64,000 nt of DNA from Pyrobaculum sp. 3827-6 (GTDB lineage: Archaea; Thermoproteota; Thermoprotei; Thermoproteales; Thermoproteaceae), in the NCBI RefSeq assembly GCF_025641885.1, contig NZ_JAOTQN010000001.1, positions 1,200,547 to 1,264,546 on the forward strand. The letters are read 5' to 3'. Below are positions 1 to 38,832 of this stretch, one piece after another. The notes under the pieces were generated by a model that saw nothing but the letters and a program-made list of their open reading frames with translations, ran no database searches and had not been told where the DNA came from. Both the position numbers and the translations under genes were made by a program. The number at the start of each line of letters is the position of its first letter. Position 1 is the stretch's first letter.

Positions 1-851
1 ATCCACGCCCCCGCGGCCGCCGGGCTTATAACACCCGCCTTAACTAGAGAAATCCCAACCCAGGGCAGTATGACAAGCTCCACCGCCGCGTATATTAAAA
101 TCGCCGCCGAGACCATGGTGGGGTAGATGGCAGGCGCGCCGATGGCGCCAGCCGCCGCAATTGAGGCCGAGACGCCGCAGACGCCGACCCCAACCGCGGC
201 CACGACGCTGAGATCCGTATTCCTTGTGAACAGTCTAAATATTGGAAATGCGAGAAGCATAAACACCGGAAATGACATCAATACCATAGTCAAAACGGTG
301 CCGCCGTACCTAATCCAGTCGGTAAACAGGATCTTAGCGCCGAGGAGTACAATTGCCGTCTTTATAAACCACTCCCCTCTGGCAGAGCCCAGCAGCCACT
401 GAGGCACTCTGGGCAAATTCCCTAGCAACATCCCCACAAACAGCGCCAGAGTAAAGGCAAACTCGGTGGTAACCACGTCGGCAATAGGCTTGTAGCCGAT
501 AACAAAGGCGCATAGCCACCAAAGCCAGTAAACTACGGAAAAGCCCCTCACCCAGTCGCCGAACTTGACGCCGATCAACTTCGCCGGGCCCGCCAGCAAC
601 AACATCAACACAAGCCAAGCCACCACTAGGTTAACCCACGGAGAGCCGAACACAAGTTTTGGATTAGGAACGGCGAACGCCTTACCGGGGTCAGTCCACT
701 TAGTCCACATAGGCACCCACCCCAGCGCGTCGGCATACGCCCAAAATCCAATAAATGCGTAAAAGAACAAAACAAGTCCAAGCCACAGCGCCCACCAATC
801 CTCCTTTTTCCAGAGAGAACTCCAGTCAATTTTCTTTTGTTGCTGGGACAT
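1..851 (-). CDS. Integral membrane protein, 3' end beyond window start (partial)
   Basis: Minus-strand ATG at 851. My manual translation, MSQQQKKIDWSSLWKKEDWWALWLGLVLFFYAFIGFWAYADALGWVPMWTKW..., runs without a stop to position 1 and is hydrophobic helix-rich. It is absent from the ORF track, probably because it has no in-window stop. It explains the overlapping low-complexity ORFs at 127-829. Confidence 0.45.
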   Translation of the reverse strand, partial: MSQQQKKIDWSSLWKKEDWWALWLGLVLFFYAFIGFWAYADALGWVPMWTKWTDPGKAFAVPNPKLVFGSPWVNLVVAWLVLMLLLAGPAKLIGVKFGDWVRGFSVVYWLWWLCAFVIGYKPIADVVTTEFAFTLALFVGMLLGNLPRVPQWLLGSARGEWFIKTAIVLLGAKILFTDWIRYGGTVLTMVLMSFPVFMLLAFPIFRLFTRNTDLSVVAAVGVGVCGVSASIAAAGAIGAPAIYPTMVSAAILIYAAVELVILPWVGISLVKAGVISPAAAGAW

Positions 852-958
852 ATGTATCCTGTACTTTTCGTTTAATAAATTTTATTACACAACTTCAAGT
901 AATATATTGAATCAAACTTAAATATAATATTCTTATTACTGAATATCAAAATATATAA

Positions 959-1453
959 TTAATACAGAAAGTTGATCTTAAGAGAATCTTTAACCCAATT
1001 CAAGTATTCATATAGATTTTCGGTGAGTATCATATATGCGATTTGATCCCAATGGAACATGGCATCTCCAGGCGGGATGGTGACTATAAGCGCAGGTGCT
1101 ACAAGACCCTTTGTACACTCAATGGGCATCAACGCAAATATAAAATTAGTTTTGAAGCCTCGCCAAGGGATATCTTCCTTAATTATTGATATGCTAGATT
1201 TGTCAAAAATTTCATTGCAAAATTTATCTACTACTAGTTTCTTATCAAGAATAAAAACTAGTAGATATTCATTATTTTCCAACTTTGAAATGATATATAA
1301 CTGATATTGGGGAACATAGAAAAACTCTTCCTCTTTAGTTTGATATGAAAGAAAAAAATTAAGAGTTTTTGGCTGGATGATTTTAAATTGCATCTCTAAA
1401 GCCTTTGAATATATACTCGCCACGGGCTCTATAAGTGAGATAGGTGCGCGCAA
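959..1453 (-). CDS. Hypothetical protein, AT-rich, immediately downstream of dsrB
   Basis: 164-aa ORF in a strongly AT-rich stretch (880-1400) that contrasts with the GC-rich flanks. It overlaps the dsrB 3' end, so the true start may be the internal Met near 1393. I recognised no family. Confidence 0.35.
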   Translation of the reverse strand: MRAPISLIEPVASIYSKALEMQFKIIQPKTLNFFLSYQTKEEEFFYVPQYQLYIISKLENNEYLLVFILDKKLVVDKFCNEIFDKSSISIIKEDIPWRGFKTNFIFALMPIECTKGLVAPALIVTIPPGDAMFHWDQIAYMILTENLYEYLNWVKDSLKINFLY

Positions 1454-2516
1454 TGTCTGGCATCCACATGTACTCTGCTATAGGCCTCGGCACGCCTACT
1501 AAGTCCAGGAATTTAGCCCATCCAATCCTATCGATGAAGTCGGCTAGTCTCTCGCCTGGTTTGGCGTTCTGGCGCCATACCTCTACTACCTGCTTGACGA
1601 CAGCCACAATTTCCTCGTACCGAGGTGGGTTCGCCGGTAGCCATGGTATTAAGTTACGTGCCAGTCTTGGGCCGCCGCCTGAATTTGACATTCTACCCCC
1701 TACTAGGATAGCTACGCCAACATCTTTAGGATCGTAGTCAAATGCATCACAATTATCTTTACATCTGCCGCAGTTAATACACTTCTCACCAACCAATACT
1801 AATTTAATCTGGCCGTCTTGTCTCCTCAGAGTCAACGCACCCGTGGGACACACCTGCACTAGGAATATCTGCGACTCGGGTATTTTGGCGAGCGCCTTAG
1901 GCGGCGGCATACATAATGGTAAGACTTCTTCTCTTATTTTGGGCGGGGCTCCCCACATCCCCACAATTGCGATATCGGTGGCGGTGCCGCCGGCACACCC
2001 AGAGGGACAGCCGGAGATGAATATCCTTAGCTTGGCTGGCAACGGTATCTCGCCTGTAAAGTAAGGCTTTAAGGCGTCTCCAAGCGCTTTCCCTATACTC
2101 GGAGCGTCTACTACTCCTATCTGACATGTTAGAAATGCGGTACATGTATTTATGCCCCACATGGCACCCCTCCAGCCGCCTACTGGGAATCCCATTTTCT
2201 CCACCTCTTCCTTTATCTTTTGGGCCTTTTCTAAACTATCAGTGATGAATTCAACGTTGCCAGCTACTGTTATTCTTAATGCGCCCACGCCATATTTATC
2301 TGCAATATCTGCAAATTTTTCTAACGTATCTGCGCTTACCCTCGCATTTGGGGGCAACGCCACTTTTATTGTAAATACTCTTTCGCCCGTTTCTGAGATA
2401 TGTTCAATAATTCCGGACCCGTGGAACTTCCTCTCTTTCCATTTGCCGTAATTACGTTTTATTATCTCAGGAAGGAATCTCTCGACTTCAGTTGGGTATT
2501 TCAGCTCTATGCTCAT
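1383..2516 (-). CDS. dsrB: Dissimilatory sulfite reductase beta subunit
   Basis: 377 aa with a ferredoxin-like 4Fe-4S insert (CINCGRCKDNCDAF) and sulfite/nitrite reductase siroheme-binding Cys motifs (GCPSGCAG). It is the second gene of an AB pair and overlaps dsrA by 4 nt. Confidence 0.88.
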   Translation of the reverse strand: MSIELKYPTEVERFLPEIIKRNYGKWKERKFHGSGIIEHISETGERVFTIKVALPPNARVSADTLEKFADIADKYGVGALRITVAGNVEFITDSLEKAQKIKEEVEKMGFPVGGWRGAMWGINTCTAFLTCQIGVVDAPSIGKALGDALKPYFTGEIPLPAKLRIFISGCPSGCAGGTATDIAIVGMWGAPPKIREEVLPLCMPPPKALAKIPESQIFLVQVCPTGALTLRRQDGQIKLVLVGEKCINCGRCKDNCDAFDYDPKDVGVAILVGGRMSNSGGGPRLARNLIPWLPANPPRYEEIVAVVKQVVEVWRQNAKPGERLADFIDRIGWAKFLDLVGVPRPIAEYMWMPDIARTYLTYRARGEYIFKGFRDAI

Positions 2517-3751
2517 ACCCTCACCAACTGCTTAACTTTTTCGGCAAATTCTGCAAATTTCTTACGCTCTTCCTCTGGCAATACTCTATAGGGCACATTA
2601 TCTGGCAGTTTCTCGACGTATTTCGGCGTATCTTCTAAGCTAATACCAGCTTTTTCTATAAATCTGTATAATCCCTCCATGAGAATATAATCGCCAAGTC
2701 TATACTTTGCCTGCGCCTCCTCGTCCCACGGCTTAATTACTTTAAATGTGACATCTATTGCCTTATCAACCTCATCAGGTTTTAAGAATCCAATAAACCA
2801 GCCGAGTTTGGGGCCGTAACGCCCCTTACTACCCCCACCGACTACTACTGCTACTCTCTTTTCTTTACCTGGCTTAATAGCGGGGAACGCCGCCCTAATG
2901 CAGTGCATCGATTTTTTACACCGTGCCCCATCTATCTTGAGCTCTTTCTTAGCAGGATCCCAGCTGATTGCGCCGCTTGGACAGTTCGCCACAAGTTTCT
3001 CTGGATCTACCTCGCCGTTCTCAATCTTCTTCCTTAATAGTTCTTGATCTACCTCGGGCGCGCCTTTCCAAACACCTATAAATCCGATATCTCCTCTATT
3101 TGCCCTTGCGCAATCCATTGGACAGCCTGACAACTTTATCTTGAACTTATACGGATAGCCTGGAACGGCGGTGGCGTCATGTACACGCTTGTCTTTTCTA
3201 AACGCAACTAACCAGTTTAGTGTATCATAAAGTGCGAATTCGCACAGAGCAGGACCTACACATGCGTTTAATTCTCTAATCGCGTCGCCGCTCCCGCCGA
3301 CGTCTGTCCCTATCTCTCTGAGTGTATCAATCATTTTATCTCCCAAGTCTTTGCTCTTTACATTGATCACCATTGCACCAGTTTGCCCCACAGCTTCAAT
3401 TAAACCGACGCCATATTCCCTGGATATTTGGATAATCTTTCTAAGGTAGTCTGTAGGTAGAAATCTCCCGGGCGTGTGGAATACTCTGAAGTGAACCTCC
3501 TCCCCACCTCCTGGGACCCAGTCTCTGGCGATTCTGGCCAAGACGCCTGTAAGACGTTTTGCCTTAACGGCACTGGGGCCCCAAGGGCTTTTCCTAGCCA
3601 CTAGACCCACACCGTATACCCGCACCGGATAACCGGTCTTTTTCAACTCGCTTACATGGCTAGGCCATGGCCCTTTTTCAAGTTCAGCCAGGTATTCGTC
3701 GGCTTTTTCTAGAAGCTTTTCTGGCGGTGGTAATCCGGGTGGAGCTGCCAT
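2513..3751 (-). CDS. dsrA: Dissimilatory sulfite reductase alpha subunit
   Basis: 412 aa with Cys clusters typical of DsrA (SGCPMDCARANRGDIGFIGVW, ANCPSGA, CKKSMHC). It is upstream of and translationally coupled to dsrB. Confidence 0.88.
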   Translation of the reverse strand: MAAPPGLPPPEKLLEKADEYLAELEKGPWPSHVSELKKTGYPVRVYGVGLVARKSPWGPSAVKAKRLTGVLARIARDWVPGGGEEVHFRVFHTPGRFLPTDYLRKIIQISREYGVGLIEAVGQTGAMVINVKSKDLGDKMIDTLREIGTDVGGSGDAIRELNACVGPALCEFALYDTLNWLVAFRKDKRVHDATAVPGYPYKFKIKLSGCPMDCARANRGDIGFIGVWKGAPEVDQELLRKKIENGEVDPEKLVANCPSGAISWDPAKKELKIDGARCKKSMHCIRAAFPAIKPGKEKRVAVVVGGGSKGRYGPKLGWFIGFLKPDEVDKAIDVTFKVIKPWDEEAQAKYRLGDYILMEGLYRFIEKAGISLEDTPKYVEKLPDNVPYRVLPEEERKKFAEFAEKVKQLVRV

Positions 3752-3838
3752 GAGAAATCTTAACTAAATTCCTAAAAAGACTTGTTACTCGTAATTAAGA
3801 AATAGATCTGTAGAGAATAGTAGAAAGGTTGTGATAAC

Positions 3839-4333
3839 CTATATTTCTTTAGCGGATTTGCCCAGCGCCTTTAGTAAAACCAGTGTTATGTAAAGCCCCC
3901 TCCTTACCTCGGCATCATTTAGAAGAGATATAAGTGTACGTATAGATATTTTCTTGTCTTCCTTAGCCTCAACAAGTGCTTTTTCTAACTCTGGATCTGC
4001 TAATGCCCTGCCGATTACCTCTACTAGCGATGTTCTTGTCAAACCGTCAATCAAAAGGCCGAGGGGTCTTATTACATTTTTGGCAAGTTCATCTACCATT
4101 CTGTCAGTAACTACATCATGTAACATAGCAATAGTGGCGAGAAGCTCTACTACGTGATCCAATACGCCGGATCTCACTAGGTATTCAGCGGCTCCCCATA
4201 GTTGTTGCTCGACAACCTCTCTAGGCACTGTAGGCATGGATTTTCCTGAGGGCGTAGCTACTATTCTGTCTACGGCAAGCCACTTGCGCCGGATCTCCTC
4301 GGACAGATACTCTTTCACCTGCGTTTCTGTCAT
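3839..4333 (-). CDS. DUF1641-like protein coupled to the flavoprotein oxidoreductase
   Basis: ATGA start/stop overlap with the upstream flavoprotein gene at 4330-4333. The 165-aa helical protein resembles DUF1641 proteins, which commonly follow SQR/NDH-II-type flavoproteins. This is a recalled association, not a search result. Confidence 0.45.
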   Translation of the reverse strand: MTETQVKEYLSEEIRRKWLAVDRIVATPSGKSMPTVPREVVEQQLWGAAEYLVRSGVLDHVVELLATIAMLHDVVTDRMVDELAKNVIRPLGLLIDGLTRTSLVEVIGRALADPELEKALVEAKEDKKISIRTLISLLNDAEVRRGLYITLVLLKALGKSAKEI

Positions 4334-5520
4334 ATTAACCCTCTGAGTGTAAGCGGTATAGAGAGGTAGTACATCCTTATTAAATACCAGCCCCATCTAT
4401 TGCCTATAAACGGCCTTGCGTTTTTTACATATGTCCACCAGGGCATCCACGCCGCGCCTTTCTCAGCTGGGGAATACACAGCACCTAGATAGGGACAGAT
4501 AGTCTCGCCGTAAAAGATCCACTTATCGCCGTGGCCCTTAATTTCGCTAGCAATGTTGTGAGAAACCACAATTGCCTCATAGTGCGCCACCGAGCCGGCT
4601 CTGGTAACGCCAATGTCGGCGACATCGCCTACGATAAACACATCGTCGTAATGTTCTTTCCCCTTTCTGTACGTCAGATTATATCTATCGCCCGGTACTA
4701 AATTAAAGGGATTCCCTATGCCGGAGTCCCCTATGACTCGAGGCCCTCGATGTGGAGGTACTGTTATAAGTAAGTCGTATTTTATCTTTTCACCTTTAGT
4801 AGATATCAATACCTTGTTTTTAGCATCTACTCGCTCTGGCTCAAATTCGTAGATGTACTCCATGCCTCGGATTTTTAACATTTCTTCCAGTACTTTATTG
4901 ACCTCAGGCTGGGCGTGTAGGTGGTCTTGCGTAGTCGCCACAATTATCTTGTACCTCCCCTTCAGCATCCTTACATTGCTTAGATATGAATCTATCAAAA
5001 GAGGCGCCTTGCCGGAGGTTATTGGACATTTCATTGATACGTCAAGCATTGCTAAAAGCTGTACTATTGTGCCGCCTGTGAATTCTTGTAGTAGTTTTCT
5101 TACTTCCTTAGCGCCTTCGAAGGTATAGTAAGTATGATAATCGTCAAGGAGACCCGGCACCAGCGACGGCTCGTAGGAACACCCAAGAGCTATGACCAAA
5201 TAATCGTATGTATAGCTCTTCCCCTTTGCCGTAGTAATTGTCCGGTTTTTTAAATCTATTTTGACTACATTACCTTCATCTCCTAAAAAGGCTTTAATTT
5301 TAGGATCAAGTATTTTAGTTTTATCATATATAAGATCTTCCTCATCATATGCCCCAGCTATATACGGCACAAATGCTGCTTCAAAATAATAAGTTTTTGA
5401 TTTGTCGAAAATCATTAACTCAACCTCCCCTTTTACAATTTCTCTGCGCAAATCTCTGGCTAAGCTATTTGCAACTATCATTCCACCAGTCCCTGCCCCA
5501 AGGACAATAATTTTTTTCAT
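4330..5520 (-). CDS. FAD-dependent pyridine nucleotide-disulfide oxidoreductase (sulfide:quinone oxidoreductase / NDH-II-like)
   Basis: N-terminal Rossmann fold MKKIIVLGAGTGGMIVANSLA and a second dinucleotide motif (VATTQD..) in a 396-aa protein. It lies between dsrC and dsrAB. Confidence 0.8.
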   Translation of the reverse strand: MKKIIVLGAGTGGMIVANSLARDLRREIVKGEVELMIFDKSKTYYFEAAFVPYIAGAYDEEDLIYDKTKILDPKIKAFLGDEGNVVKIDLKNRTITTAKGKSYTYDYLVIALGCSYEPSLVPGLLDDYHTYYTFEGAKEVRKLLQEFTGGTIVQLLAMLDVSMKCPITSGKAPLLIDSYLSNVRMLKGRYKIIVATTQDHLHAQPEVNKVLEEMLKIRGMEYIYEFEPERVDAKNKVLISTKGEKIKYDLLITVPPHRGPRVIGDSGIGNPFNLVPGDRYNLTYRKGKEHYDDVFIVGDVADIGVTRAGSVAHYEAIVVSHNIASEIKGHGDKWIFYGETICPYLGAVYSPAEKGAAWMPWWTYVKNARPFIGNRWGWYLIRMYYLSIPLTLRGLI

Positions 5521-5542
5521 AGATTACAAAAAAAGCGCAGTT

Positions 5543-5878
5543 TTACACACAACCTGTTGGCTTAGGCGCTCCAGCTATTTTACAAGCGCCGTTTGCAGGG
5601 CCTGAGGGAAAGAGCTGGTATATTCTTTCAAGCGTGTTTCCTGTTTCTTTTAGCAACATCTTTATAGGCGGACATACGCCGTAGGTTTCCCAGTACTCTC
5701 TGAGATACTTAACTACTTTCCAATGATCATCTGTCATTTGTTGTATTCCCTCTAACTCACGCGCTAGCCATTCTGCTACTTTCTCATTCCACGCCTCTGG
5801 ATTTTGCATAAAACACTCCTCGTCTAATATTACAACAACATCATCAACCTTGTATTCCCCCGGGCATTTCACTGGCAT
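5543..5878 (-). CDS. dsrC: DsrC/TusE-family sulfur-relay protein
   Basis: 111 aa. The C-terminal arm ...NGACKIAGAPKPTGCV carries two conserved Cys, the penultimate CV being characteristic of DsrC. It lies 22 nt upstream of the flavoprotein gene. Confidence 0.85.
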   Translation of the reverse strand: MPVKCPGEYKVDDVVVILDEECFMQNPEAWNEKVAEWLARELEGIQQMTDDHWKVVKYLREYWETYGVCPPIKMLLKETGNTLERIYQLFPSGPANGACKIAGAPKPTGCV

Positions 5879-5964
5879 GCCACCTCTACTTAAGAGTAGT
5901 ATAAAAGGATCATTACTCTATTTTGAGTAATTATGTAACATGAAAGAAAACTACGATCCTTCCG

Positions 5965-6627
5965 CTATGTATGTTTACATTTACGAATAATTATCAACAA
6001 AGGTCTTACTCCTTGGAATTTATCTAATTCATCTACATTAACTATTTTAATACAACCTCCCCCTATTGTAATTGCATAACATATATATATTTCAACATTT
6101 TTCTCACAATTTTGTATTACAGCTGTCTTTACCATATCTAGTCTTTCGCCCATCATAAAAATTACGGCGGTGTCTGCTGCAACCTTGTTAAGGATTTCTG
6201 AGTTAAAATGAGGAAAAGAGAAGAGAGCTATATGTCTTAGCGATACGCCGTCTGTAAGCTCTATTTTGTACAACGCTGCAGCTGCCGTAAAGGCACTGAT
6301 GCCCGGCACTATTTGGCAGGACACTCCCCTATTTTCGGCTTTTTTACATATCTGTACTCCTCTGCCAAAGATAGAGGGATCTCCATTTTTCAGAATCACA
6401 ACATTCCGATCCCTAGCCTCTTCTATTAACTGTTCCACTATCGTATCATGTTCTTCTTTTCTGTGTCCAATTTTTACCCTCTTGGCGCTTGGAGCGTAAA
6501 GCGTAACGATTTCTTCAGGCACGAGATCGCCGTAGGCTACGACGTCTGCTTGACGCAGTAACTCCACTGCCTTAACCGTTAGCAGGCTCGGGTCGCCGGG
6601 GCCCGCCCCCACTACGTAGATCGGCAT
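5965..6627 (-). CDS. cobA: Uroporphyrinogen-III C-methyltransferase (SUMT, precorrin-2 synthesis for siroheme)
   Basis: Tetrapyrrole methylase motifs VVGAGPGDPSLLTVKAVELLRQADVV and GDPSIFGRG. The true start is probably the internal MPIYVVGAG (6627). The track ORF extends spuriously into dsrN. Confidence 0.85.
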   Translation of the reverse strand: MPIYVVGAGPGDPSLLTVKAVELLRQADVVAYGDLVPEEIVTLYAPSAKRVKIGHRKEEHDTIVEQLIEEARDRNVVILKNGDPSIFGRGVQICKKAENRGVSCQIVPGISAFTAAAALYKIELTDGVSLRHIALFSFPHFNSEILNKVAADTAVIFMMGERLDMVKTAVIQNCEKNVEIYICYAITIGGGCIKIVNVDELDKFQGVRPLLIIIRKCKHT

Positions 6628-7952
6628 AACGCCGCCAAGACGTTGTATGTATAGGGGTGGATGTGTAGGTACTGGGCGTGCATGTTGTGCTTCACAACGC
6701 CGTCCCACCCCCCTCCCACCCCCACGCCCCTCTCCAGCTTAATGACGAGATTCGGCTTCTCCCTAAAGATAATCTTAGAGTAGTGGAACTCGTGGCCCAC
6801 CAGCCTCGTCCCCCGGGGCGCCACTGGGGTATCCCCCACCACCTGCCCCCAGACGTATCCCTTGCCCACCGGCCTGTCCAGCATCACCGTGACGGCGTCT
6901 ATGGCGCCCACCATCTCGTACTCGCTACGATCGATAACTATAGAGGAGGTCATGTACATAAGGCCTCCGCACTCGGCGTACAGCCTCCCCCCCGACTCCA
7001 CATAGCGCAGGAGGGCTTTTCTAAAGGGCTTGTTCCGCTCCAGCTCCTCAGCCAGCACTTCGGGGAATCCGCCACCCACCACGACGAGATCCACCGGCGG
7101 CAGCGCTTGATCCCTCAGCGAATTTATGAAGACAGGCTCCCCCACCGACGCCGCGGCCTCGAGGAGCTCTGGGTAGTAGAAGGTGAAGGCGCGGTCCATT
7201 ATAATACCCAACCTGCAGTTGCCGCCAGCGGGGGGGTCAGCCTCGGGTTCTTCGTCCAGCTCCCCAGCCCTCTTGGCGATAGACAGAATCCCGTCGAGGT
7301 CGAGGTAGGGCACCACGTAGCTCTCCAACACGTCTAAGACGCCGCCTGCGTCGCCTCTCTCGCCGGTGGGGACTAGACCTAGGTGCCGGTAGGCGAAGGC
7401 CTCGGCCACTTTCTTCGACTTTGGCACAACGCCCACAATCTCCACGCCCTCCTCGGGGAGGGCCTTGACAAGCTTCTCCGCCTGCCTGGGGGTGACGTTT
7501 GTCAATATTACGCCAGCCACGTCCACGCCGGGGTCAAAAGCCTTGAGGCCTCTGACGACGGCGCGTAGCGTCCTGTTTACCCTCTCGCCGTTTAGCACCA
7601 CCACCACCGGGGCCTTGAGCAACTTCGCCACCTGCGCCGTGGAGCCCAACTCGGAGACGCCGTCTACCGAGTCGTAGAGGCCGAGCACGCCCTCCACCAC
7701 GGCCAAGTCGGCGCCAGCGGCGTACTTCACAAACCTCCTCCTCACCCCATCCTCGCCCATCAACACCACGTCGAGATTTCTGCCAGCCACCCCGGCGGCA
7801 AGGCTATGGTAGGAGGGGTCTATGTAGTCGGGCCCCACCTTGAAGGGCGCCACCCTCAGCCCTCTGCGGGCGAGGCCGTACAAAATGCCAAGGGTTACAA
7901 TGGTCTTGCCGGACATCCCACGGGGGGCTGATATAACAATCCTCGGAATCAC
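6612..7952 (-). CDS. dsrN: Cobyrinic acid a,c-diamide synthase homolog, probable siroheme amidase
   Basis: 446-aa CbiA/CobB-family protein with an N-terminal ATPase P-loop (SAPRGMSGKT) and a C-terminal glutamine amidotransferase domain. Its position inside the dsr/siroheme cluster matches the DsrN role known from dsr loci. Confidence 0.7.
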   Translation of the reverse strand: MIPRIVISAPRGMSGKTIVTLGILYGLARRGLRVAPFKVGPDYIDPSYHSLAAGVAGRNLDVVLMGEDGVRRRFVKYAAGADLAVVEGVLGLYDSVDGVSELGSTAQVAKLLKAPVVVVLNGERVNRTLRAVVRGLKAFDPGVDVAGVILTNVTPRQAEKLVKALPEEGVEIVGVVPKSKKVAEAFAYRHLGLVPTGERGDAGGVLDVLESYVVPYLDLDGILSIAKRAGELDEEPEADPPAGGNCRLGIIMDRAFTFYYPELLEAAASVGEPVFINSLRDQALPPVDLVVVGGGFPEVLAEELERNKPFRKALLRYVESGGRLYAECGGLMYMTSSIVIDRSEYEMVGAIDAVTVMLDRPVGKGYVWGQVVGDTPVAPRGTRLVGHEFHYSKIIFREKPNLVIKLERGVGVGGGWDGVVKHNMHAQYLHIHPYTYNVLAALCRST

Positions 7953-8001
7953 GGGCCAACGGGCGCATCATTTAAAAATCTTTATTACTAATAATAGGCT
8001 A

Positions 8002-8592
8002 CTACCTCCTCCTAGCCCTCACCCTCAGAATTCCGGGCGCCGTCACTATGTCCACTATTCCGTAGCCCAGATCCTCCAGCATGCATCTAACCGCCGACGC
8101 CGTCACCTCCACGCTCTCTATGCTGTAGCCTACGCCGATTGTGTCTATTGTGAACTCCCCGCCCTCGGCCTTTATCTCGAACCTCCTCGCCGGCACGACG
8201 TTTGCGAGGTACCTGGCGAAATATGCCGCGTTCTCTAGCGTGCCAAACACTGCCTTTACATATCCCGCGATCATCCTTCCGGCTTCGCACCAAATCGTCG
8301 TCGCTGTCTCTTTATTCATCTTGAACATCTCCACAACCATCTTGTCCAGGAGGCGGCCGGGGAGGGGGACAGTCTCAAGCTCAGTCATCACCTTGTAGAA
8401 GGTGGCTATGTCCCTGATCTGCTGCACCGAGAAGCCTTCCCTGATCAGCGCAAGGCCGACGCTGAGTATCTGGTTAGCCAGGGCGAACTGGGTGTAGCCC
8501 ATGGACTCCGCGGTCTTCGCCAAATCTTCAGCCACGTCCCTAGCCACTGCGATGTTTACTCTGTCCTTCCTGACACTCATAGAATCTCCCAA
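8002..8592 (-). CDS. Hypothetical protein upstream of dsrN
   Basis: Clean 196-aa ORF with codon usage like its neighbours. I recognised no family. It is a possible first gene of the dsr operon. Confidence 0.5.
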   Translation of the reverse strand: MGDSMSVRKDRVNIAVARDVAEDLAKTAESMGYTQFALANQILSVGLALIREGFSVQQIRDIATFYKVMTELETVPLPGRLLDKMVVEMFKMNKETATTIWCEAGRMIAGYVKAVFGTLENAAYFARYLANVVPARRFEIKAEGGEFTIDTIGVGYSIESVEVTASAVRCMLEDLGYGIVDIVTAPGILRVRARRR

Positions 8593-9278
8593 ATTTCAGA
8601 TATTTATAGTTAAAAGACGGGAAATAACCAGAGATAGTGCACACCTTTGGACTGGCTCAACAAGTTAATTCGCGATCTGTGTATAATTGTCTAAGACACT
8701 CCAAATCCGTCTTGTAAGCATTCTACACCATCTCCAATGGAGCCCAGAGAGCTCACAAACCCTACATGCCGCCTATGGAACCGACGCCCCCGCATACGGC
8801 GTAGATTCAAACTTGCCGTGAAGACCTGTGTCGAATTCCTCGTAGATCCACAACCCACCCTTCTCCTGCCGGAATTCGACGCATGCATTAACGCCGGGGA
8901 CGAGACGCCCCTTACACGCGGCTCATAAACCATTAGCCCGCGCTTAGCCTCGCGTTTCTGCACCCTAGACACCACATCAATACCTCTAGGTTAACCTAAG
9001 CCACAGACCGCTCCAGCTCCCCTCTCAGCTAAAGAAATAAATCTAGATATCAAGAAACGCAGTCGACTGGCGTAGAGGCCGCCGTACACACTTAGATGAC
9101 AGGTGCCTGCGTCGGGCCGGTGTTGCGTATATTCGCCCTTGAGAAGATCGCGGACCTAGATAAGCCTGCAAATGACTCTACTTGTCAGACCCAACGTCAT
9201 CGACTACGTGGAGAACAAGGGATGGGGAAACTAGTAGCGCACCACTGGGCGCTTTGTAATCAGAAAGAACCTCAGGAA

Positions 9279-9588
9279 GATGCCCGGCACCGCGGCAGTG
9301 CTAGGCGTCTTTAGCCCTAGTTGTGGAAGGCGCGCGGGGGCATTGGCGCACGTCAAGGGTGAGGCCTAAACTTCAGATACACTGGCAGAGCTGAGGACAA
9401 GGCACTCGGACTCGTGGGCTACGTCAAGAATCTTCCGGAGAGCAGGTTGGGAGTTGTGGCCTATGGCAACGAGGAGCGGGATCGTAAATTCGTGGAGAAG
9501 CTCTTAGGAGGGCTTGAGAAATGTAGAGTCACCGCGCCCTACCATGAACCTGCCGGGAGATACGACGATTTCTACGTTCAGTAGTGGT
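9279..9588 (+). pseudogene. Acylphosphatase, frameshifted
   Basis: Manual translation gives ...ALAHVKGEA* in one frame and GLNFRYTGRAEDKALGLVGYVKNLPESRLGVVAYGNEERDRKFVEKLLGGLEKCRVTAPYHEPAGRYDDFYVQ* in another. This reads as VxGxVQGVxFR ... GxVxNxxDGxVE, the acylphosphatase fold, with a small indel near 9343. Confidence 0.4.
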
Positions 9589-9740
9589 GCAGGCGGAAAG
9601 GGGGTGAGGAAAAAGGTTGTTTAATTATGTTTACTTTTTCTTTTCAGATTCTTTTTTCTTTTCTTCGGCCTTCTTTGGAGGTGCGCACATAGATGGCCAC
9701 CAAGTTCTGCAATATTTCTTTCTAAGCATTAATATTGATC

Positions 9741-10088
9741 CTATTTGCCGTGGACGCGGCTGGGGCTAAGCTTTGATACACATTCACTTATTAGATCTGC
9801 ACATTTTACGCATAGATCCCCTTTGGGATCTGTCAATCGCTTTTCTAAACAGTGGGCGCATTTGACTGCTTCAATAGAGGGGTTGCCCACGGCCTTTGCC
9901 AAGAGCGAGGGGAGGGCGTGGAGAGCCGGCGTGGGGGCATATGGGTGGTTGCCCAGCACCCCCATGAGAAGGGCCCTCACGGCGACGTAGGCGTTGTAGC
10001 AAGCCCATGAGTCGTCGCCCCGCTCGAGGCCTCTAATCGCCTCTGTCATGTGTCTATAGTGGCGCTCTATCCACTTGGGGTGGATCAC
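9741..10088 (-). CDS. HEPN-like helical protein with C-terminal CxxC..CxxC zinc ribbon
   Basis: 115 aa. The N-terminal helical region (EAIRGLERGDDSWACYNAYVAVRALLMGVLG) is HEPN-like. The C-terminus CAHCLEKRLTDPKGDLCVKCAD has four Cys. Confidence 0.4.
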   Translation of the reverse strand: MIHPKWIERHYRHMTEAIRGLERGDDSWACYNAYVAVRALLMGVLGNHPYAPTPALHALPSLLAKAVGNPSIEAVKCAHCLEKRLTDPKGDLCVKCADLISECVSKLSPSRVHGK

Positions 10089-10112
10089 GGGGGAAGATCT
10101 ATATAGCTACTT

Positions 10113-10598
10113 TTGTTTTTCTCCGTGAGGCTCGACATGTGCAAAACGTCTTCGATTCTTGACTACCGGGCTGTGATGTTTCTAGAGGGGGGCTACGTCA
10201 GAGTCACCGCCGCAAACGACAAGTCGCTTGTGGCAAAGGTGACGAAGGGGCCTTGTCTGGGGGTTTCTAGGGAGGTGGCCTTCCTGCTGTATCCCCACTA
10301 TGGCTGGGGCAAGATCCCCGTCGAGGCGGAGAGCGCCATGGAGGCTGTGGAGCTTGTTAAGGCTACTAGAGTTGTGACGCGGGTGCCCTTCGGCATAGGG
10401 GAGGCCGTGGTGCGGAGACGATTGGAGGGCTTCCCCGTGTGTGAAGGCTCGATGGCGCTTGAATACCTGGAGTATGTAGAGTTCGGCGAGGTGGTGCACG
10501 TGGAGCCTGCCCGGTTCTCGGTACTGGCGCCCGACACCACGCTGAGGCTCGTGGAGTTGCCTGTGGAGGACTCCGAGGTCGTCTTTATGCGTAGGTAG
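10113..10598 (+). CDS. Hypothetical protein upstream of sat
   Basis: 161-aa ORF. The start is uncertain: an internal MFLEGG is possible. No family recognised. Confidence 0.4.
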   Translation: MFFSVRLDMCKTSSILDYRAVMFLEGGYVRVTAANDKSLVAKVTKGPCLGVSREVAFLLYPHYGWGKIPVEAESAMEAVELVKATRVVTRVPFGIGEAVVRRRLEGFPVCEGSMALEYLEYVEFGEVVHVEPARFSVLAPDTTLRLVELPVEDSEVVFMRR

Positions 10599-10652
10599 GT
10601 TATCTTCTAACGGTTGTTAGTAATGTTTTAGATTTTTTCACATAGAGACGCC

Positions 10653-12020
10653 ATGCCTGCGCCACTTGAACCACACGGCGGGCGGCTGGTTTACAATGTG
10701 ATAGAAGATAGAGACAAGGCGGAGAGCGCCGTGAAGGGCCTCGCCAGATTGGAGATAGAGCCGACCCTCGGCCTGGACGGTGCGCCGATCCGCAACCCCT
10801 ACCGCGAGATTATGTCCATCGCATACGGCTTCTTCAGCCCCGTGGAGGGCTTCATGACGAGGAACGAGGTGGAGAATATTTTAAAGGAGAGGCGCCTACT
10901 GAGCGGCTGGCTCTTCCCATTCCCGCTGGTGTTCGACGTGGATGAGGAGAAGTTCAAGTCGCTGGGGGTTAAAGAGGGCGACACCGTGTTGCTCACCCTC
11001 AAGGGCAAGCCGTTTGCCACGTTGAAAATCGAAGAGGTGTGGAAGCTCCCGGACCGCAAGGAGTTCGCCGACGCCGTCTTCGGAACCCCTGAGCGCAACA
11101 AGGAGGTGGTGAAGAAGAGGTTTGATGAAAAACACCCCGGCTGGCTGATATACCGATCCATGAAGCCCATCGCTCTGGCGGGGAAGGTCACAGTGGTGAA
11201 CCCGCCGAGGTTTAAAGATCCCTACAGCAGGTTCTGGATGCCGCCGCACGTCTCGCGGGAGTACGTGGCTAAGAAGGGGTGGAAGATCGTGGTTGCCCAC
11301 CAGACGAGAAACGTGCCGCACATAGGCCACGAAATGCTTATGAAAATGGCCATGTTCGTCGCCGGTTGCGACAGGCCGGGGGACGCGGTGCTCGTAAACG
11401 CAATTATAGGGGCCAAGAGGCCGGGGGACTACGTCGACGAGGCCATCCTGGAGGGCCACGAGGCTCTGAACAAATTCGGCTACTTCCACCCAGACCGCCA
11501 CGTGGTTACCATGACTCTGTGGGATATGCGCTACGGGAACCCGCTGGAGTCGCTACTGCACGGGGTCATTAGGCAGAACCTCGGCGCGACGCACCACATG
11601 TTTGGCCGTGACCACGCCGCCACGGGCGACTACTACGACCCCTACGCCACGCAGTACCTCTGGACGCGGGGACTCCCCAGCTACGGCATCAACGAGCCGC
11701 CTCACGTGACGGACAAGGGGCTGAAGATACGCCCGGTGAACCTCGGCGAATTCGCCTACTGCCCCAAGTGCGGCGAGTATACATACCTAGGCATGTCTTA
11801 CGGCGACTACAAGGAGGTGGCCCTCTGCGGCCACACGCCGGAGAGGATATCCGGCTCCTTCCTCCGCGGCGTCATCATAGAGGGCCTCAGGCCGCCGAAG
11901 GTGGTCATGAGGCCGGAGGTGTACGACGTAATTGTAAAGTGGTGGAGGGTGTACGGCTACCCCTACGTCACAGATAGGTACCTAAAAATTAAAGAACAGG
12001 AGCTGGAGGTGGAGCTATGA
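10653..12020 (+). CDS. sat: Sulfate adenylyltransferase (ATP sulfurylase)
   Basis: 455 aa with the ATP-sulfurylase active-site motifs VAHQTRNVPHIGHE (QTRN + HxxH) and GRDHAATG. The N-terminal domain is PUA-like. Confidence 0.9.
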   Translation: MPAPLEPHGGRLVYNVIEDRDKAESAVKGLARLEIEPTLGLDGAPIRNPYREIMSIAYGFFSPVEGFMTRNEVENILKERRLLSGWLFPFPLVFDVDEEKFKSLGVKEGDTVLLTLKGKPFATLKIEEVWKLPDRKEFADAVFGTPERNKEVVKKRFDEKHPGWLIYRSMKPIALAGKVTVVNPPRFKDPYSRFWMPPHVSREYVAKKGWKIVVAHQTRNVPHIGHEMLMKMAMFVAGCDRPGDAVLVNAIIGAKRPGDYVDEAILEGHEALNKFGYFHPDRHVVTMTLWDMRYGNPLESLLHGVIRQNLGATHHMFGRDHAATGDYYDPYATQYLWTRGLPSYGINEPPHVTDKGLKIRPVNLGEFAYCPKCGEYTYLGMSYGDYKEVALCGHTPERISGSFLRGVIIEGLRPPKVVMRPEVYDVIVKWWRVYGYPYVTDRYLKIKEQELEVEL

Positions 12021-12361
12021 CGTACAAAATCGGGTTGCTGATAGACGAGAGGCGCTACGAGGCTATTAAAGACACGCCGCTGGCCCAGAACCTCAAGTCT
12101 ATGTTCGGCGGGGAGATAAAGATACTGGAGGTGGACGTCGACGAGGAGACCGCAAAGAGGATACTTGCCGAGTTCCCCTCGGCCAGAGTAGACGCCAGGG
12201 GCTTCCTCGAGGACCTCCCAGTGGCGTTCAAGAAGGCGCTGTTCGACGCCATTGCCCATACTAAGAGGGCTGATAAGACGGCGTTTGAAAAAGTGTTTGA
12301 AAAAATAGAGGCTATTAAGGAAGCGGCGCGGAAAGAGAAGGAGTACGTACCTCCACCTTGA
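12017..12361 (+). CDS. Small hypothetical protein translationally coupled to sat
   Basis: 114-aa ORF overlapping the sat stop (ATGA). Charged and helical. Unknown family. Confidence 0.45.
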   Translation: MTYKIGLLIDERRYEAIKDTPLAQNLKSMFGGEIKILEVDVDEETAKRILAEFPSARVDARGFLEDLPVAFKKALFDAIAHTKRADKTAFEKVFEKIEAIKEAARKEKEYVPPP

Positions 12362-12996: not shown

Positions 12997-13720
12997 CTAC
13001 CCCCGTAACCTCAAGATATAGTTGTATGCCGAGTAGGCCGCTACGGCCCCCTGCGCCGCGGCTATCTGTATCTGTTTAAACCCTCTGGGCATCGCCGTGG
13101 TGCAGTCCCCGGCCGCATAGATGCCGGGGATATTCGTCTCCATGGCCTCATTTACTTTAACATAGCCGTCTTCGGTGAGTTCTAGGCCGACGCGTCTGAA
13201 AAAATCCACGGCGTCTCCGCGCCTATTTCGATGAAGATGCCGTCAACTGGCAGTTTTTCTAACTCACCGCTGTCTACTCTCTTAATTACCGCCTCTCTAA
13301 GCATTTTATCGCCTCTGAGTTCAACCACCACGCGGTTCCACAAGATCTCTATCTTCCCGCTTTTAGAGAGGAGCTTTTGGTAATGCGGCCTCGCCCTCAG
13401 CCTATCCCTTAGTAGATCTTAGAGGCGTATTCCGCAAGCAACAAGGCGGCCTGCGCCGCCGAGACCCCTTCTCCCACAACGGCGACTGTTTTGCCCCTAA
13501 AGAGAGGGGCGTCGCAAGGAGCGCAGTAGCTCACCCCCCTCGCGTTAAACTCCTCCTCCCCCGGAACGCCGAGCTTCCTCCTCCGCTCCCCCACGGCAAT
13601 TATCACCGTGACAGCTTCCAACATCTCGCCGCTATCCATTGTCACAACAAATCTATTGTCTATCTGCCGGATATTCTCAACTTTTCCCAGTATAATAGGG
13701 GCGCACTACAGCTAATCAGA
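12997..13720 (-). pseudogene. Thioredoxin reductase (trxB-like), multiply frameshifted and N-terminally truncated
   Basis: Three consecutive frame segments read as TrxR. The first is ...[33 protein letters not shown]...[40 protein letters not shown], which includes the CxxC redox site. The second is [69 protein letters not shown]. The third is DFFRRVGLELTEDGYVKVNEAMETNIPGIYAAGDCTT...AYSAYNYIL. The FAD-binding GxGxxG N-terminus was not found. Confidence 0.6.
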
Positions 13721-14551: not shown

Positions 14552-14703
14552 AGAATATCCCAGTTTTTATAAGCCCGTACAGAGCCCCACAGGCCCACAT
14601 GCTGTCAGCCGGATCTCTTGACGTGGAGCAGGTGCTTGGCTAGGTTTCGCACATCTCAACTAGCCGCCTCATCCGCAAAGCAAAAAAGCGCCCACATGCG
14701 TAC

Positions 14704-15072
14704 TTACCAAGCCTCAGTGGTGTACAGCATCAGCGCCCTTTCTTTCAACCGTCCGGTGATTGGGTCTACCTCCAGCTCCAGCACCTCTAGAGTCGTCACT
14801 CCGATGAGCACCTTATCAATCACGTCTGATATCAAGACGGGGACCACCTTGCCGCGGTCGGCTATCTCCACGTAGGCCCTCCCCCGCTCCATTTCTATTA
14901 CTCCAGCACCTGTCTCCATTCTCGACACGGCGTGGGGTTTTATCCCGAGCTCCTCCGCCAGCCGCCTCGGCAACACGGTCAAAGTAGCCCCGGTATCCAC
15001 CAGCGCCTTTACAGATCTACGCGCCGTACCTTCTAAATTTCCAATAATAACCTCAACCCAGATATGACCCAC
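14704..15072 (-). CDS. Retropepsin-like (clan AA) aspartyl protease domain protein
   Basis: 122 aa with the catalytic-like motif ALVDTGAT and overall retropepsin-fold spacing. Confidence 0.55.
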   Translation of the reverse strand: MGHIWVEVIIGNLEGTARRSVKALVDTGATLTVLPRRLAEELGIKPHAVSRMETGAGVIEMERGRAYVEIADRGKVVPVLISDVIDKVLIGVTTLEVLELEVDPITGRLKERALMLYTTEAW

Positions 15073-15622
15073 GAATCTTTTAACGAGTTTAAAAGTAAAT
15101 TTTCCCTATGTCCCAGCCGCGTATTTACCGTGTTTTTTCACTATTTCGCCAATCGGCTACTCCAAATACCTAGCTGAGGCGGCACACTGCCAAGTTCAGT
15201 GTTGTGGGAGGGGGGCGAGAGAGCATTTCTCGGCCTCCAGTTAGAAATGTAACAGCTCTCATGCGGTTAATAAGTATCCCGCGATTGCTAATCCATTGGC
15301 CGCAAATATATGGTTGAAGTTTATCCAAACCTGTTTAGTAGGTAAGGTGGAGTAGTTCCGGCGGTCATGGTAGCAATTGCTAAAAACGCGTAGCGACGTG
15401 GATTAGATACGCCGCGTAGGAGAAGTTGCAAATAGATTTGAGCATAGGACCCCGTCGTGGAGTTTAGCAAAGAGGCTAGAAATAATACAAGTGGCCCGCT
15501 TTATGGCCTCGTCAGTCCGTGGATTTTAATTACCACCGGTAATAGGGAGCCGCAAGCAAGGCAGAGATAGGTAAAGGCTTTGCTAAAGACGAGACGCAGT
15601 AGGCTAAAAGCCCTTAACTTTC

Positions 15623-16516: not shown

Positions 16517-16560
16517 CCTCAAGAGACTACGGGAGTCAGGGAAAGACTCCTAAACAAAAC

Positions 16561-38370: not shown

Positions 38371-38832
38371 GTGGCAGTCACCATATCTCCCCCCGTGGCC
38401 GAGGTGCTGAAAAAAGCGGCAGGAGATAAAGATCTGGAGGAGTTCCTACTCACACTAGTCGCAGAGCGGCTCGATCCGCCAGAGCGCGTCGAGGCTTACC
38501 TCAAGCTTCATGAGAAGTTTTTGAGGGAGGCTGAGGAGCTGTATCAAAAGGGCGACTTGGTGCAGGCTGGTGAGAAGTACTGGGGCGCCGTAGCCGCTTT
38601 GCTAAACGCATTGGCGGAGAAGCGGGGCTGGGAGCACCACAGCCACAGAGACTACGCAGTCGCGGTAGAGAGGCTGTACGAAGAGACAAGAGACAGAGAG
38701 CTGGTGGTGGGGTTTAGAATGGCCGAGGGCCTCCACGCAAACTACTACCACAACTTCATGAGAAGAGAGGGGTTTGAACTGCACAGAGAGGCCGTATTGA
38801 AGCTTGTGGAGAAGCTGAAGAAATTCCTATAA
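38371..38832 (+). CDS. PaREP1-family protein
   Basis: GEKYWGAVAALLNALAEKRGWEHHSHRDYAVAVERLYEE...MAEGLHANYYHNFM is paralogous to 14066..14551. Confidence 0.65.
   Translation: MAVTISPPVAEVLKKAAGDKDLEEFLLTLVAERLDPPERVEAYLKLHEKFLREAEELYQKGDLVQAGEKYWGAVAALLNALAEKRGWEHHSHRDYAVAVERLYEETRDRELVVGFRMAEGLHANYYHNFMRREGFELHREAVLKLVEKLKKFL

Follow-up and report, generated by a model that had tools for sequence, protein, structure and literature searches.

A 64-kb stretch of the genome of Pyrobaculum sp. 3827-6 (64,000 nt of contig NZ_JAOTQN010000001.1; hereafter the window) contains the dissimilatory sulfite reductase (dsr) locus of this archaeon, in which a flavoprotein of the sulfide:quinone oxidoreductase (SQR) family and a small DUF1641-family protein are encoded between dsrC and dsrA. 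We lean towards the reading that these two proteins form a quinone-linked complex, working beside DsrMK, in which sulfane sulfur is passed to or from DsrC, in a recombinant dsr locus. This reading is based on the SQR-type cysteines and fold of the flavoprotein, the homology of its partner to quinone-conduit subunits, the conservation of the pair in the dsr loci of relatives, and the linkage of type III SQR genes with genes of DsrC-like carriers in bacteria. The region as a whole is an ordinary archaeal dsr locus that has been rearranged and is laterally mosaic.

Gene organization of the dsr locus

The open reading frames (ORFs) of the window were listed and then analyzed by profile searches (Pfam, and NCBIfam/TIGR with curated cut-offs). 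Scores are given in bits, followed by the cut-off where two values are shown. The genes on which the argument depends are as follows.

959–1393, minus strand: p144, a conserved 144-aa ORF directly 3′ of dsrB (11-nt overlap with dsrB; GC content, 32%)
1383–2516, minus strand: dsrB, dissimilatory sulfite reductase beta subunit (TIGR02066, 494.5 vs 341.5; exact match WP_263245046 / MCU7787705)
2513–3751, minus strand: dsrA, dissimilatory sulfite reductase alpha subunit (TIGR02064, 501.3 vs 392.85; exact match WP_263245050)
3839–4333, minus strand: DUF1641-family partner, 164 aa (PF07849, 39.7 vs 21, residues 143–180)
4330–5520, minus strand: SQR-family flavoprotein, 396 aa (NF049943, 239, under the cut-off of 525)
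5543–5878, minus strand: dsrC (TIGR03342, 117.5 vs 53.5; both C-terminal cysteines present)
5965–6627, minus strand: cobA/SUMT, uroporphyrinogen-III C-methyltransferase of the siroheme branch (PF00590, 145.6)
6612–7952, minus strand: dsrN-type a,c-diamide synthase (CbiA/CobB), putative siroheme amidase (TIGR00379, 427.5 vs 261.4; MCU7787711)
10653–12020, plus strand: sat, ATP sulfurylase (NF003166, 476.7 vs 387; MCU7787715)
12017–12361, plus strand: DUF6955 protein, translationally coupled to sat (PF22271, 101.2)

In the direction of transcription, the minus-strand genes are arranged as dsrN, cobA, dsrC, flavoprotein, DUF1641, dsrA, dsrB, and p144. For the DUF1641 gene, the real start at 4333 was used instead of the longest-ORF start at 4396. 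A first-pass annotation, made from the sequence letters, had proposed the dsrN-cobA-dsrC-flavoprotein-DUF-dsrAB order, and the profile searches recovered each of these genes with the same identity and at the same coordinates. The tight packing that it described is also evident at the junctions: ATGA overlaps join flavoprotein/DUF1641, dsrA/dsrB, and sat/DUF6955, dsrN and cobA overlap by 16 nt, and dsrB and p144 overlap by 11 nt. AT-rich gaps of 86–87 nt precede dsrC and dsrA, and the stop codon of dsrC is separated from the flavoprotein start by only 22 nt. The distance from dsrN to sat, given in the annotation as 2 kb, is 2.7 kb.

DsrA and DsrB are adjacent paralogous subunits, both scoring above the equivalog cut-offs. 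In DsrB, Fer4-type matches were detected at residues 220–257, each under its own Pfam cut-off, and the NIR_SIR match spans residues 119–341 with an insertion, as expected for the ferredoxin-like [4Fe-4S] insertion. The C-terminus of DsrC reads ACKIAGAPKPTGCV; a bona fide DsrC (not TusE) was recognized by a penultimate CysA and a CysB located eleven residues upstream, and C110 and C99 occupy these positions in the corresponding C-X10-C arrangement. The dsrN product contains GATase_3 (PF07685) and PF01656 domains, scores 395.7 with the CfbB model (cut-off, 560), and is 95% identical to the P. ferrireducens homolog and 71% to that of Thermoproteus tenax, both of which are encoded next to dsr genes. 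The DsrN call relies on the family together with the linkage to dsr genes, which sets the protein apart from cobalamin CbiA and F430 CfbB. For cobA, the related NCBIfam models all score under their cut-offs. The gene calls for DsrAB, DsrC, DsrN, SUMT, and Sat at the locus are correct.

The SQR-family flavoprotein

Close relatives of the flavoprotein (47–99% identity) were found only in Pyrobaculum, Thermoproteus, and Vulcanisaeta, followed by homologs of 35–38% identity, and then by canonical type III SQRs at ~30%. Its best NCBIfam model is that of type III SQR (selenoprotein subtype, NF049943), and since the score lies under the type III cut-off, the protein is classed in a separate subfamily. 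It is thus best described as an SQR-family enzyme of a distinct Thermoproteaceae subfamily, related to type III but not canonical type III. Cys165 aligns with Cys201 of human SQOR, and Cys342 aligns with human Cys379 and A. aeolicus Cys347; neither cysteine varies among 15 orthologs. Because tblastn matches stop at residue 342, a selenocysteine was considered for the second catalytic site but rejected, the inspected loci encoding an ordinary Cys upon translation. In the alignment with human SQOR, the segment at the second Rossmann region of SQR carries an SQR-type "KCP" motif, and a second GxGxxG NADH-binding motif was not seen; the N-terminal cysteine of CoA-disulfide reductases and NADH oxidases (CoADR/Nox) is not present in the sequence.

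The AlphaFold2 model of the flavoprotein (predicted local distance difference test, pLDDT, 85; predicted template-modeling score, pTM, 0.86) has SQRs as its top Foldseek matches in the PDB (3hyv, 6oi6, and 8dhk; template-modeling score, 0.78–0.83), with structures of type II NADH dehydrogenase (NDH-2) forming a second tier. The last 55 residues, modeled with low confidence, are rich in Trp and Tyr, conserved within the subfamily, and unlike those of other SQRs. They include a predicted C-terminal helix (residues 375–395; pLDDT, 44–58), whose sequence is also unlike that of other SQRs.

The DUF1641 partner

In a phmmer search against PDB sequences, the DUF1641 protein alone gave no match. A profile built from six Thermoproteaceae partners matched Bacillus subtilis ForE1 (8rqz) with an E value of 6.5e-5, and a 12-member profile matched the same protein over 125 positions (E 3.5e-7) as well as Ncp/YjlC (9snk, E 6.7e-4; 9pxk, E 1.4e-3), with HucM reaching only E 0.7. 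The matches to ForE1 and Ncp span ~95–125 residues and thus extend beyond the 39-residue DUF1641 domain. The protein is predicted to be a quinone-conduit or scaffold subunit homologous to ForE and Ncp. Both the binding of menaquinone and the formate:menadione activity of ForC depend on ForE (PMC8808070), and Ncp ("NDH-2 membrane coupling protein") assembles into tetrameric tubes through which menaquinone reaches NDH-2 (PMC13524794). No description of an SQR as partner of a DUF1641 protein was found in the DUF1641 literature searched.

Conservation of the pair in dsr loci of Thermoproteaceae

Gene contexts in relatives were retrieved through exact-protein look-ups. Orthologous flavoprotein–DUF1641 pairs are located inside the dsr loci of six Thermoproteaceae lineages including 3827-6, and the adjacency of the two genes is kept in all orthologous loci. 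The arrangements in the relatives are as follows.

Vulcanisaeta distributa: dsrKM, 171-aa ORF, pair, dsrAB, 308-aa ORF, dsrC, with DUF6955-sat-aprAB upstream
T. tenax: cobA-dsrN, pair, 190-aa ORF, dsrK, dsrM-dsrAB-131-aa ORF-dsrC
P. arsenaticum and P. oguniense: dsrM-dsrAB-157-aa ORF-dsrC-203-aa ORF-pair-184-aa ORF-dsrK
Metagenome contig L090 (77% identical): same order as P. arsenaticum
Vulcanisaeta metagenome-assembled genome (MAG; contig L003): pair inside the dsr locus

Several other genes recur around the pair. A family of 169–222-aa proteins, with a winged-helix-like N-terminus and a Cys-rich C-terminus, accompanies it in all Pyrobaculum and Thermoproteus loci (L001:15889–16557, ~1.7 kb beyond the window start; L087:11740–12294; L084:11627–12199; L083:11751–12356), with a GC content of 22–30% in Pyrobaculum genomes of ~55–58% GC. 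The 222-aa member outside the window gave sub-threshold winged-helix matches (E 0.002–0.2) in a relaxed Pfam scan. The pairs of P. calidifontis and one Pyrobaculum MAG keep a 169–201-aa gene of this type and a radical-SAM/SPASM gene. P. arsenaticum also carries a paralogous second pair of SQR-like and DUF1641 genes, located immediately behind a reductase operon of the Mo-pterin/4Fe-4S/NrfD (Psr/Ttr-like) type (L087:16259–21188).

Linkage of SQR genes with DUF1641 and DsrC/TusE genes in other lineages

More distant loci were collected by scanning genome contigs with the generic peptide pattern YDYLVIAxG; they represent mostly distant SQRs, and none comes from the Pyrobaculum genomes. A DUF1641 ORF, detected with a hidden Markov model (HMM) of the partner, directly follows the SQR-like gene in 25 of the 71 loci, and the pairing was confirmed by Pfam in Anaerolineae, Methanosarcinaceae, Sulfolobaceae, Archaeoglobus, and Aquificales. 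A gene of the TusE/DsrC family lies 260–1082 nt downstream on the same strand in about half (33/64) of the bacterial type III SQR loci with enough downstream sequence. In 23 of these 33 loci, mostly from Actinomycetota, the carrier gene starts 260–331 nt past the end of the SQR match, that is, directly after the SQR gene. In the other ten, mostly from Chloroflexota, it starts 897–1082 nt past the match, a distance fitting an intervening DUF1641-sized ORF, which was recognized by the partner HMM in eight loci and confirmed by Pfam in four. Examples among loci L011–L063 are L022:10001–11572 and L024:83–2312. Among the bacterial loci tested, the SQRs score 632–634 (cut-off, 525) and the TusE/DsrC carriers 79–96 (cut-off, 53.5). 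The dsrC-flavoprotein-DUF1641 trio of 3827-6 mirrors this bacterial module, but with a two-cysteine DsrC. No description of a linkage between SQR and TusE/DsrC genes was found in the literature searched.

In Ignicoccus hospitalis, adjacent genes for a DUF1641 protein and an FAD-oxidoreductase (Iho_0672/Iho_0673) are upregulated 10- and 5-fold, together with an NrfD polysulfide-reductase subunit (PMC3149612). A methanogen-like metagenome contig (L092) carries a pair of 37% identity (8001–9570) 5 kb from a gene for an Fsr-type (FrhB plus NIR_SIR), F420-dependent sulfite reductase (14584–16527).

DsrMK and the source of sulfite

The first-pass annotation had noted the absence of aprAB, APS (adenosine 5′-phosphosulfate) kinase, and dsrMK from the window and asked how sulfite is generated and how DsrC is re-reduced. 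The absence itself was confirmed: tblastn searches of the 64 kb with the T. tenax, V. distributa, P. arsenaticum, and P. ferrireducens proteins detected no homologs of DsrM, DsrK, AprA, or AprB, and Pfam scans of the window ORFs of at least 150 aa detected no apr, qmo, dsrMK, or APS kinase domains, so that sat is the only gene of the Sat-AprAB-Qmo pathway within the window. The search was then extended to the rest of the genome, as that annotation had suggested, with P. arsenaticum DsrK as the query, followed by reading of the cluster members. DsrK (MCU7787648.1, 470 aa) and DsrM (MCU7787649.1, which carries the annotation "respiratory nitrate reductase subunit gamma") are encoded on the same 1,414,246-bp contig as dsrB (MCU7787705), ~56 genes before it by accession order and just outside the window. 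In Logan contig L089, assembled from the sequencing run of the strain (SRR21876913), dsrM and dsrK are divergently adjacent and intact; the 470- and 255-aa products DsrK and DsrM are 77% and 67% identical, respectively, to those of P. arsenaticum. As DsrMK is encoded elsewhere on the contig, the puzzle of DsrC re-reduction dissolves, and DsrC appears to be re-reduced by the ordinary route. Next to dsrM, positions 1–450 of L089, where the contig ends, cover the 3′-terminal part of a dsrB of the P. ferrireducens type (83% identity), together with the initial 50 codons of its downstream ORF. The strain therefore has, alongside dsrMK, either another copy of dsrAB or what is left of one.

The question of sulfite generation likewise loses its force. 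Thiosulfate respiration yields sulfite. Strain 3827-6, an isolate from the Uzon Caldera, grows with H2 and elemental sulfur (S0), or heterotrophically with S0 or thiosulfate (PMC9872711), and because it respires thiosulfate, APS reductase is not required as a source of sulfite. Two genes for anion-permease-like proteins also flank the locus.

3–854, minus strand: Cons_hypoth698 (YeiH-like) membrane protein, 5′ part, running off the window start (PF03601, 56.7)
15623–16516, plus strand: TauE/SafE-family anion permease (PF01925, 59.2 vs 32.6)

The Cons_hypoth698 gene, present in full (473 aa) in Logan contig L001, is 37–38% identical to the P. calidifontis and P. arsenaticum genes, and its product is a candidate sulfur-oxyanion permease; the TauE/SafE protein is a possible sulfite transporter. 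The Cons_hypoth698 gene and a radical-SAM/SPASM gene adjoin the island in every Pyrobaculum locus seen. As for the remaining pathway genes, aprBA is present in P. ferrireducens, P. arsenaticum, and P. calidifontis, and frameshifted in P. aerophilum, and Sat shares a 90% cluster with the Sat proteins of P. aerophilum, P. arsenaticum, P. oguniense, and T. uzoniensis.

Proposed role of the pair and alternative explanations

In the mechanism that we propose, DsrAB would reduce the sulfite derived from thiosulfate respiration or uptake and hand the sulfur to DsrC, according to the established Dsr model; SUMT and the DsrN-type amidase would supply siroheme amide, and DsrC would be recycled by DsrMK. 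The flavoprotein and the DUF1641 protein would form one complex, with the flavoprotein docked on a DUF1641 oligomer whose subunits build a hydrophobic conduit from membrane menaquinone/menaquinol to the site of the flavin adenine dinucleotide (FAD), in a manner similar to ForE for formate dehydrogenase and Ncp for NDH-2. Cys165 and Cys342 would perform SQR-type sulfane-sulfur chemistry, with the C-terminal cysteine arm of DsrC as the sulfur partner. Taken together, the conduit, the cysteine chemistry, and the DsrC partner would give the module a role in connecting sulfide, or the sulfur bound to DsrC, with the quinone pool, in parallel to DsrMK. The module may operate in either direction, with sulfide being oxidized onto DsrC or DsrC-bound sulfane being reduced with menaquinol. 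The suggestion of the first-pass annotation that the pair serves as an electron link is thus retained in a modified form, as an SQR-family enzyme with a quinone-conduit-type DUF1641 partner conserved in the dsr loci of Thermoproteaceae; its coexistence with DsrMK speaks against a replacement.

A broader proposal, which we put forward tentatively and regard as rather doubtful, is that SQR-type flavoproteins with DUF1641 proteins constitute a fourth, previously undescribed class of DUF1641 quinone-conduit systems, with a sulfur partner of the DsrC/TusE type. In Thermoproteaceae, the module would be a peripheral DsrC-sulfane (persulfide/trisulfide):menaquinone oxidoreductase, joining DsrC to the quinone pool by a second route that is not homologous to DsrMK; in Actinomycetota and Chloroflexota, it would load or unload a single-cysteine TusE-like carrier.

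Several observations weigh against a DsrC-linked complex. The pairs of P. calidifontis and one Pyrobaculum MAG have no dsr genes within 8–10 kb, dsrC is 4–6 kb away from the flavoprotein gene in T. tenax and V. distributa, and many other lineages carry the pair without a DsrC-like neighbor. The bacterial carriers keep the penultimate cysteine, and since they are devoid of CysB, they are not bona fide DsrC. The flavoprotein remains below the type III SQR cut-off, and by retaining a hydrophobic C-terminal helix, it might bind to the membrane without help. The AlphaFold2 model of the partner monomer (12 close homologs) is all-helical but of low confidence (pLDDT, 54), so that its tube architecture is one that we infer. 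For free S0/H2S, reducing sulfane sulfur with menaquinol is thermodynamically unfavorable. Finally, the claims on the module of 3827-6 are drawn from gene context and homology.

The main alternative, which we consider possible though less probable than the complex proposed above, is that the pair is an ordinary sulfide:quinone oxidoreductase that detoxifies or harvests the sulfide formed by DsrAB (H2S to polysulfide, with reduction of the quinone) without direct contact with DsrC, its site in the dsr island reflecting co-regulation or hitch-hiking. The SQR fold and both catalytic cysteines are in keeping with such an enzyme, as are the wide occurrence of the pair without dsr or DsrC-like neighbors and the position of the second P. 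arsenaticum pair behind a Mo-pterin/FeS/NrfD operon rather than dsr genes. Yet the direct or near adjacency of TusE/DsrC genes to type III SQR genes in 33 of the 64 bacterial loci and the mere 22 nt separating dsrC from the flavoprotein gene would be difficult to account for if the proteins had no function in common, and re-oxidizing the cell's own respiratory end-product to S0 via the same quinone pool would amount to a futile cycle under strict sulfur respiration. That the flavoprotein plays no part in sulfur metabolism and is a generic enzyme (NADH oxidase, NDH-2, or CoA-disulfide reductase), a possibility that the first-pass annotation had named as damaging to its proposal, is scarcely credible: although Pfam gives only Pyr_redox_2, NCBIfam gives weak matches to CoA-disulfide reductase and NADH oxidase (at most 47 bits, far under the cut-offs), and NDH-2 structures are second-tier fold matches, the best matches in both sequence and structure are SQRs, the SQR cysteine pair is invariant, and neither the CoADR/Nox cysteine nor the second GxGxxG is found.

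It is also very improbable that the pair replaces a missing DsrMK as the sole route of DsrC re-reduction. This idea drew on the absence of dsrMK from the 64-kb window, in view of their position flanking dsrAB in relatives, and was rejected once DsrK and DsrM had been found on the same contig (MCU7787648/9) and, as intact 470- and 255-aa proteins, in the reads of the strain. Because every relative examined that has the pair in its dsr locus also has DsrMK, the pair is regarded as an addition, not a replacement. For annotation practice, nothing can be concluded about a genome from the fact that dsrMK are missing from a 64-kb window.

Beyond this locus, the conserved SQR/DUF1641 module in early-branching dsr loci and the pairing of type III SQR with TusE/DsrC point to an unrecognized protein acceptor or donor of sulfur for SQR-type enzymes, as well as to an enzyme class that would be new among the users of the DUF1641 quinone conduits, themselves a recent discovery. 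If true, this would affect the reading of dsr gene sets in metagenomes, whether as reductive, as oxidative, or as sulfide-recycling, and the assumed breadth of use of quinone-conduit scaffolds.

Mosaic structure of the locus

The GC content is 43–47% over positions 1–6000 of the window, compared with 53–66% over most of the rest. The genome has a G+C content of 57.5%, and its nearest relative is P. ferrireducens 1860T (PMC9872711). Two structural features were identified by comparison with that species.

6540–6600: recombination breakpoint between the high-GC backbone and the low-GC dsr cassette (sliding identity and GC content against P. ferrireducens)
9034–9578: deletion scar with pseudogene fragments of a SelD-related/HypF-like sulfur-metabolism gene (comparison with P. 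ferrireducens contig L088)

In a 60-nt sliding comparison, the break at ~6540–6600 falls within the 5′ end of cobA, where the identity to P. ferrireducens drops from ~95% to ~65% and the GC content from ~62% to ~40%. The GC content at third codon positions (GC3) is 0.80 in dsrN, the product of which is 95% identical to that of P. ferrireducens, and 0.38 in cobA; the genes from cobA to p144 have GC3 values of 0.32–0.48 and are nearest to the low-GC dsr island of P. arsenaticum, with identities of 83% for DsrA, 86% for DsrB, 89% for DsrC, 64% for the flavoprotein, 61% for the DUF1641 protein, and 55% for p144. Thus cobA is chimeric, its 5′ end being native and its 3′ part of low GC content, and a low-GC dsr cassette (40–48% GC; from the 3′ part of cobA to the post-dsrB ORF) has been spliced inside cobA into a P. 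ferrireducens-like backbone (57–62% GC; 95% identical). Between positions 9033 and 9129, the window has no counterpart of a 7.5-kb P. ferrireducens segment (L088, 1420–8901) that contains a second dsrAB-like pair, two TusA genes, two HEM4 genes, and most of the SelD-related/HypF-like gene, of which only protein fragments remain at positions 9187–9578.

An assembly chimera or contamination as the origin of the low-GC block and the unusual gene order is extremely unlikely. A fall in GC content from ~62% to ~40% within 100 nt, in a 13-contig short-read draft, might raise such a suspicion; however, L001, a Logan assembly made independently, has the same order and junction (100% identity), as does L002 (97–99%), an unrelated metagenome contig from ENA, the latter of which argues against an artifact. 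Comparable low-GC dsr islands are also seen in P. arsenaticum and P. calidifontis, both of which have complete genomes, although not in T. tenax. The CheckM contamination of the draft assembly is 0% (PMC9872711). The dsr cassettes in Pyrobaculum are to be seen as laterally exchanged mosaics. Searches at the island borders found no tRNA genes, Rfam families, or relevant tandem repeats; sigma-70 promoter and terminator scans, the models of which do not apply to archaea, gave results at or under shuffle expectation.

Other ORFs and features of the window

Further features in and around the cluster are as follows.

8002–8580, minus strand: u192, conserved hypothetical ORF upstream of dsrN (P. ferrireducens homolog in the same position)
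10125–10598, plus strand: u157, hypothetical ORF 54 nt upstream of sat (P. ferrireducens homolog)
12997–13639, minus strand: decayed Pyr_redox_2 gene, fragments (76-aa and 70-aa Pyr_redox_2 gene calls in Logan contig L001)

The best-conserved dsr-linked ORF of unassigned function is p144, which the first-pass annotation had not listed. Its homologs follow dsrB in P. arsenaticum (55% identity), T. tenax (45%), and P. ferrireducens (28%), and also in contig L090; the family is tiny, with 12 representative clusters among 1.84 billion proteins, and no Pfam family was matched in standard or relaxed scans. In bacteria, DsrD occupies the post-dsrB position, where p144 sits. DsrD has been reported to be absent from Crenarchaeota (PMC8794893).

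Of the three uncharacterized ORFs that had been proposed as candidates for accessory functions, the one at 12017–12361 turned out to encode DUF6955, and the DUF6955-sat pair is also found in V. distributa. The other two still lack a family match, with probable starts at 8580 instead of 8592 (u192) and at 10125 instead of 10113 (u157) according to gene calls. Their conservation is narrow: u192 is 95% identical to a 192-aa P. ferrireducens gene upstream of dsrN, with a weak match to a 188-aa T. tenax gene (E 3e-5), and u157 is conserved only in P. ferrireducens, where its counterpart (83% identity) is located at the margin of contig L088. The N-terminus of u192 is ribbon-helix-helix-like (RHH_5, E 0.15, not significant), and u157 had no match in Pfam, NCBIfam, or relaxed Pfam searches. 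The decayed Pyr_redox_2 fragments at 12997–13639 include a 32-aa match to a 469-aa P. ferrireducens flavoprotein.

Elsewhere in the window, low-GC islands are located at 36000–38000 (41%), holding a LAGLIDADG-domain ORF (36351–37328), and at 44000–48000 (46–47%), corresponding to a glycosyltransferase cluster beside rml (dTDP-rhamnose) genes. The gene at 31458–32525 (plus strand) combines an N-terminal rubrerythrin/ferritin-like domain with an encapsulin shell protein (Linocin_M18) in one fusion, and a TnpB/Cas12f-like ORF is located at 39556–40716 (minus strand). Five PaREP1-family genes were found at 16561–17130, 28004–28474, 38371–38832, 52073–52630, and 52754–53464. In the ORF-poor stretches at ~24.6–29.4, 54.6–57.9, and 59.3–64 kb, no Rfam match, tRNA, or CRISPR-like repeat was found.

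Comparison with known systems

To our knowledge, no connection other than DsrMK has been assumed between DsrC and the quinone pool of archaeal sulfite reducers. The minimal set of the Dsr pathway is usually given as DsrABC-MK(N) (PMC10504309). The role proposed here for the pair, connecting DsrC-bound sulfur to the menaquinone pool, is the one assigned to DsrMK(JOP), with which it coexists in the same genomes; the proteins are nevertheless unrelated, DsrMK consisting of a NarI-like heme b membrane subunit and a CCG-domain iron-sulfur (FeS) subunit, and the pair of a peripheral flavoprotein and a helical scaffold. DsrL is likewise a flavoprotein from dsr loci, proposed to be an electron donor to, or drain from, DsrAB/DsrC (cited in PMC8794893), but it is an FeS flavoprotein using NAD(P)H, whereas that of 3827-6 has neither an FeS domain nor an NAD(P)H motif and carries the SQR cysteines.

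With type III SQRs, such as that of Caldivirga maquilingensis (NF049943), the flavoprotein has in common the FAD Rossmann fold, two equivalent cysteines, the lack of a third cysteine motif, and ~30–35% identity; the catalytic cysteines of type III enzymes are at about C159/C339 (PMC13047784). It differs in its score (239 vs 525 bits), in the obligatorily coupled DUF1641 gene, and in the C-terminal 55 residues, which are common only to Thermoproteaceae and one Methanosarcinaceae homolog. In Ndh-Ncp (YjlD-YjlC of B. subtilis), ForCE, and Huc (HucM), as in 3827-6, the gene of a quinone-reactive enzyme adjoins a small DUF1641 gene; NDH-2 and the flavoprotein belong to the same fold class with two dinucleotide-binding domains, and the partner is homologous to ForE1 and Ncp. 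The enzyme of 3827-6 is, however, an SQR-type sulfur enzyme and not an NDH-2, formate dehydrogenase, or hydrogenase, and whereas Ndh-Ncp has been reported only in Bacillota (PMC13524794), the SQR/DUF1641 pair is archaeal and also present in Chloroflexota and others.

The closest counterparts are the dsr loci of T. tenax, P. arsenaticum/oguniense, and V. distributa, which have in common with 3827-6 the families of dsrAB, dsrC, the small post-dsrB ORF, the pair, dsrN-cobA, and sat-DUF6955, the DsrA, DsrB, and DsrC proteins of T. tenax and P. arsenaticum being 79–89% identical to those of 3827-6. In these relatives, dsrMK flank dsrAB, whereas in 3827-6 dsrM and dsrK are ~56 genes away; aprBA adjoins sat in V. 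distributa but not in 3827-6. Unlike in the relatives, the dsrC-flavoprotein-DUF1641 trio of 3827-6 is located upstream of dsrA, not downstream of dsrC or beside dsrK, and its cassette is spliced inside cobA into a P. ferrireducens-like backbone.

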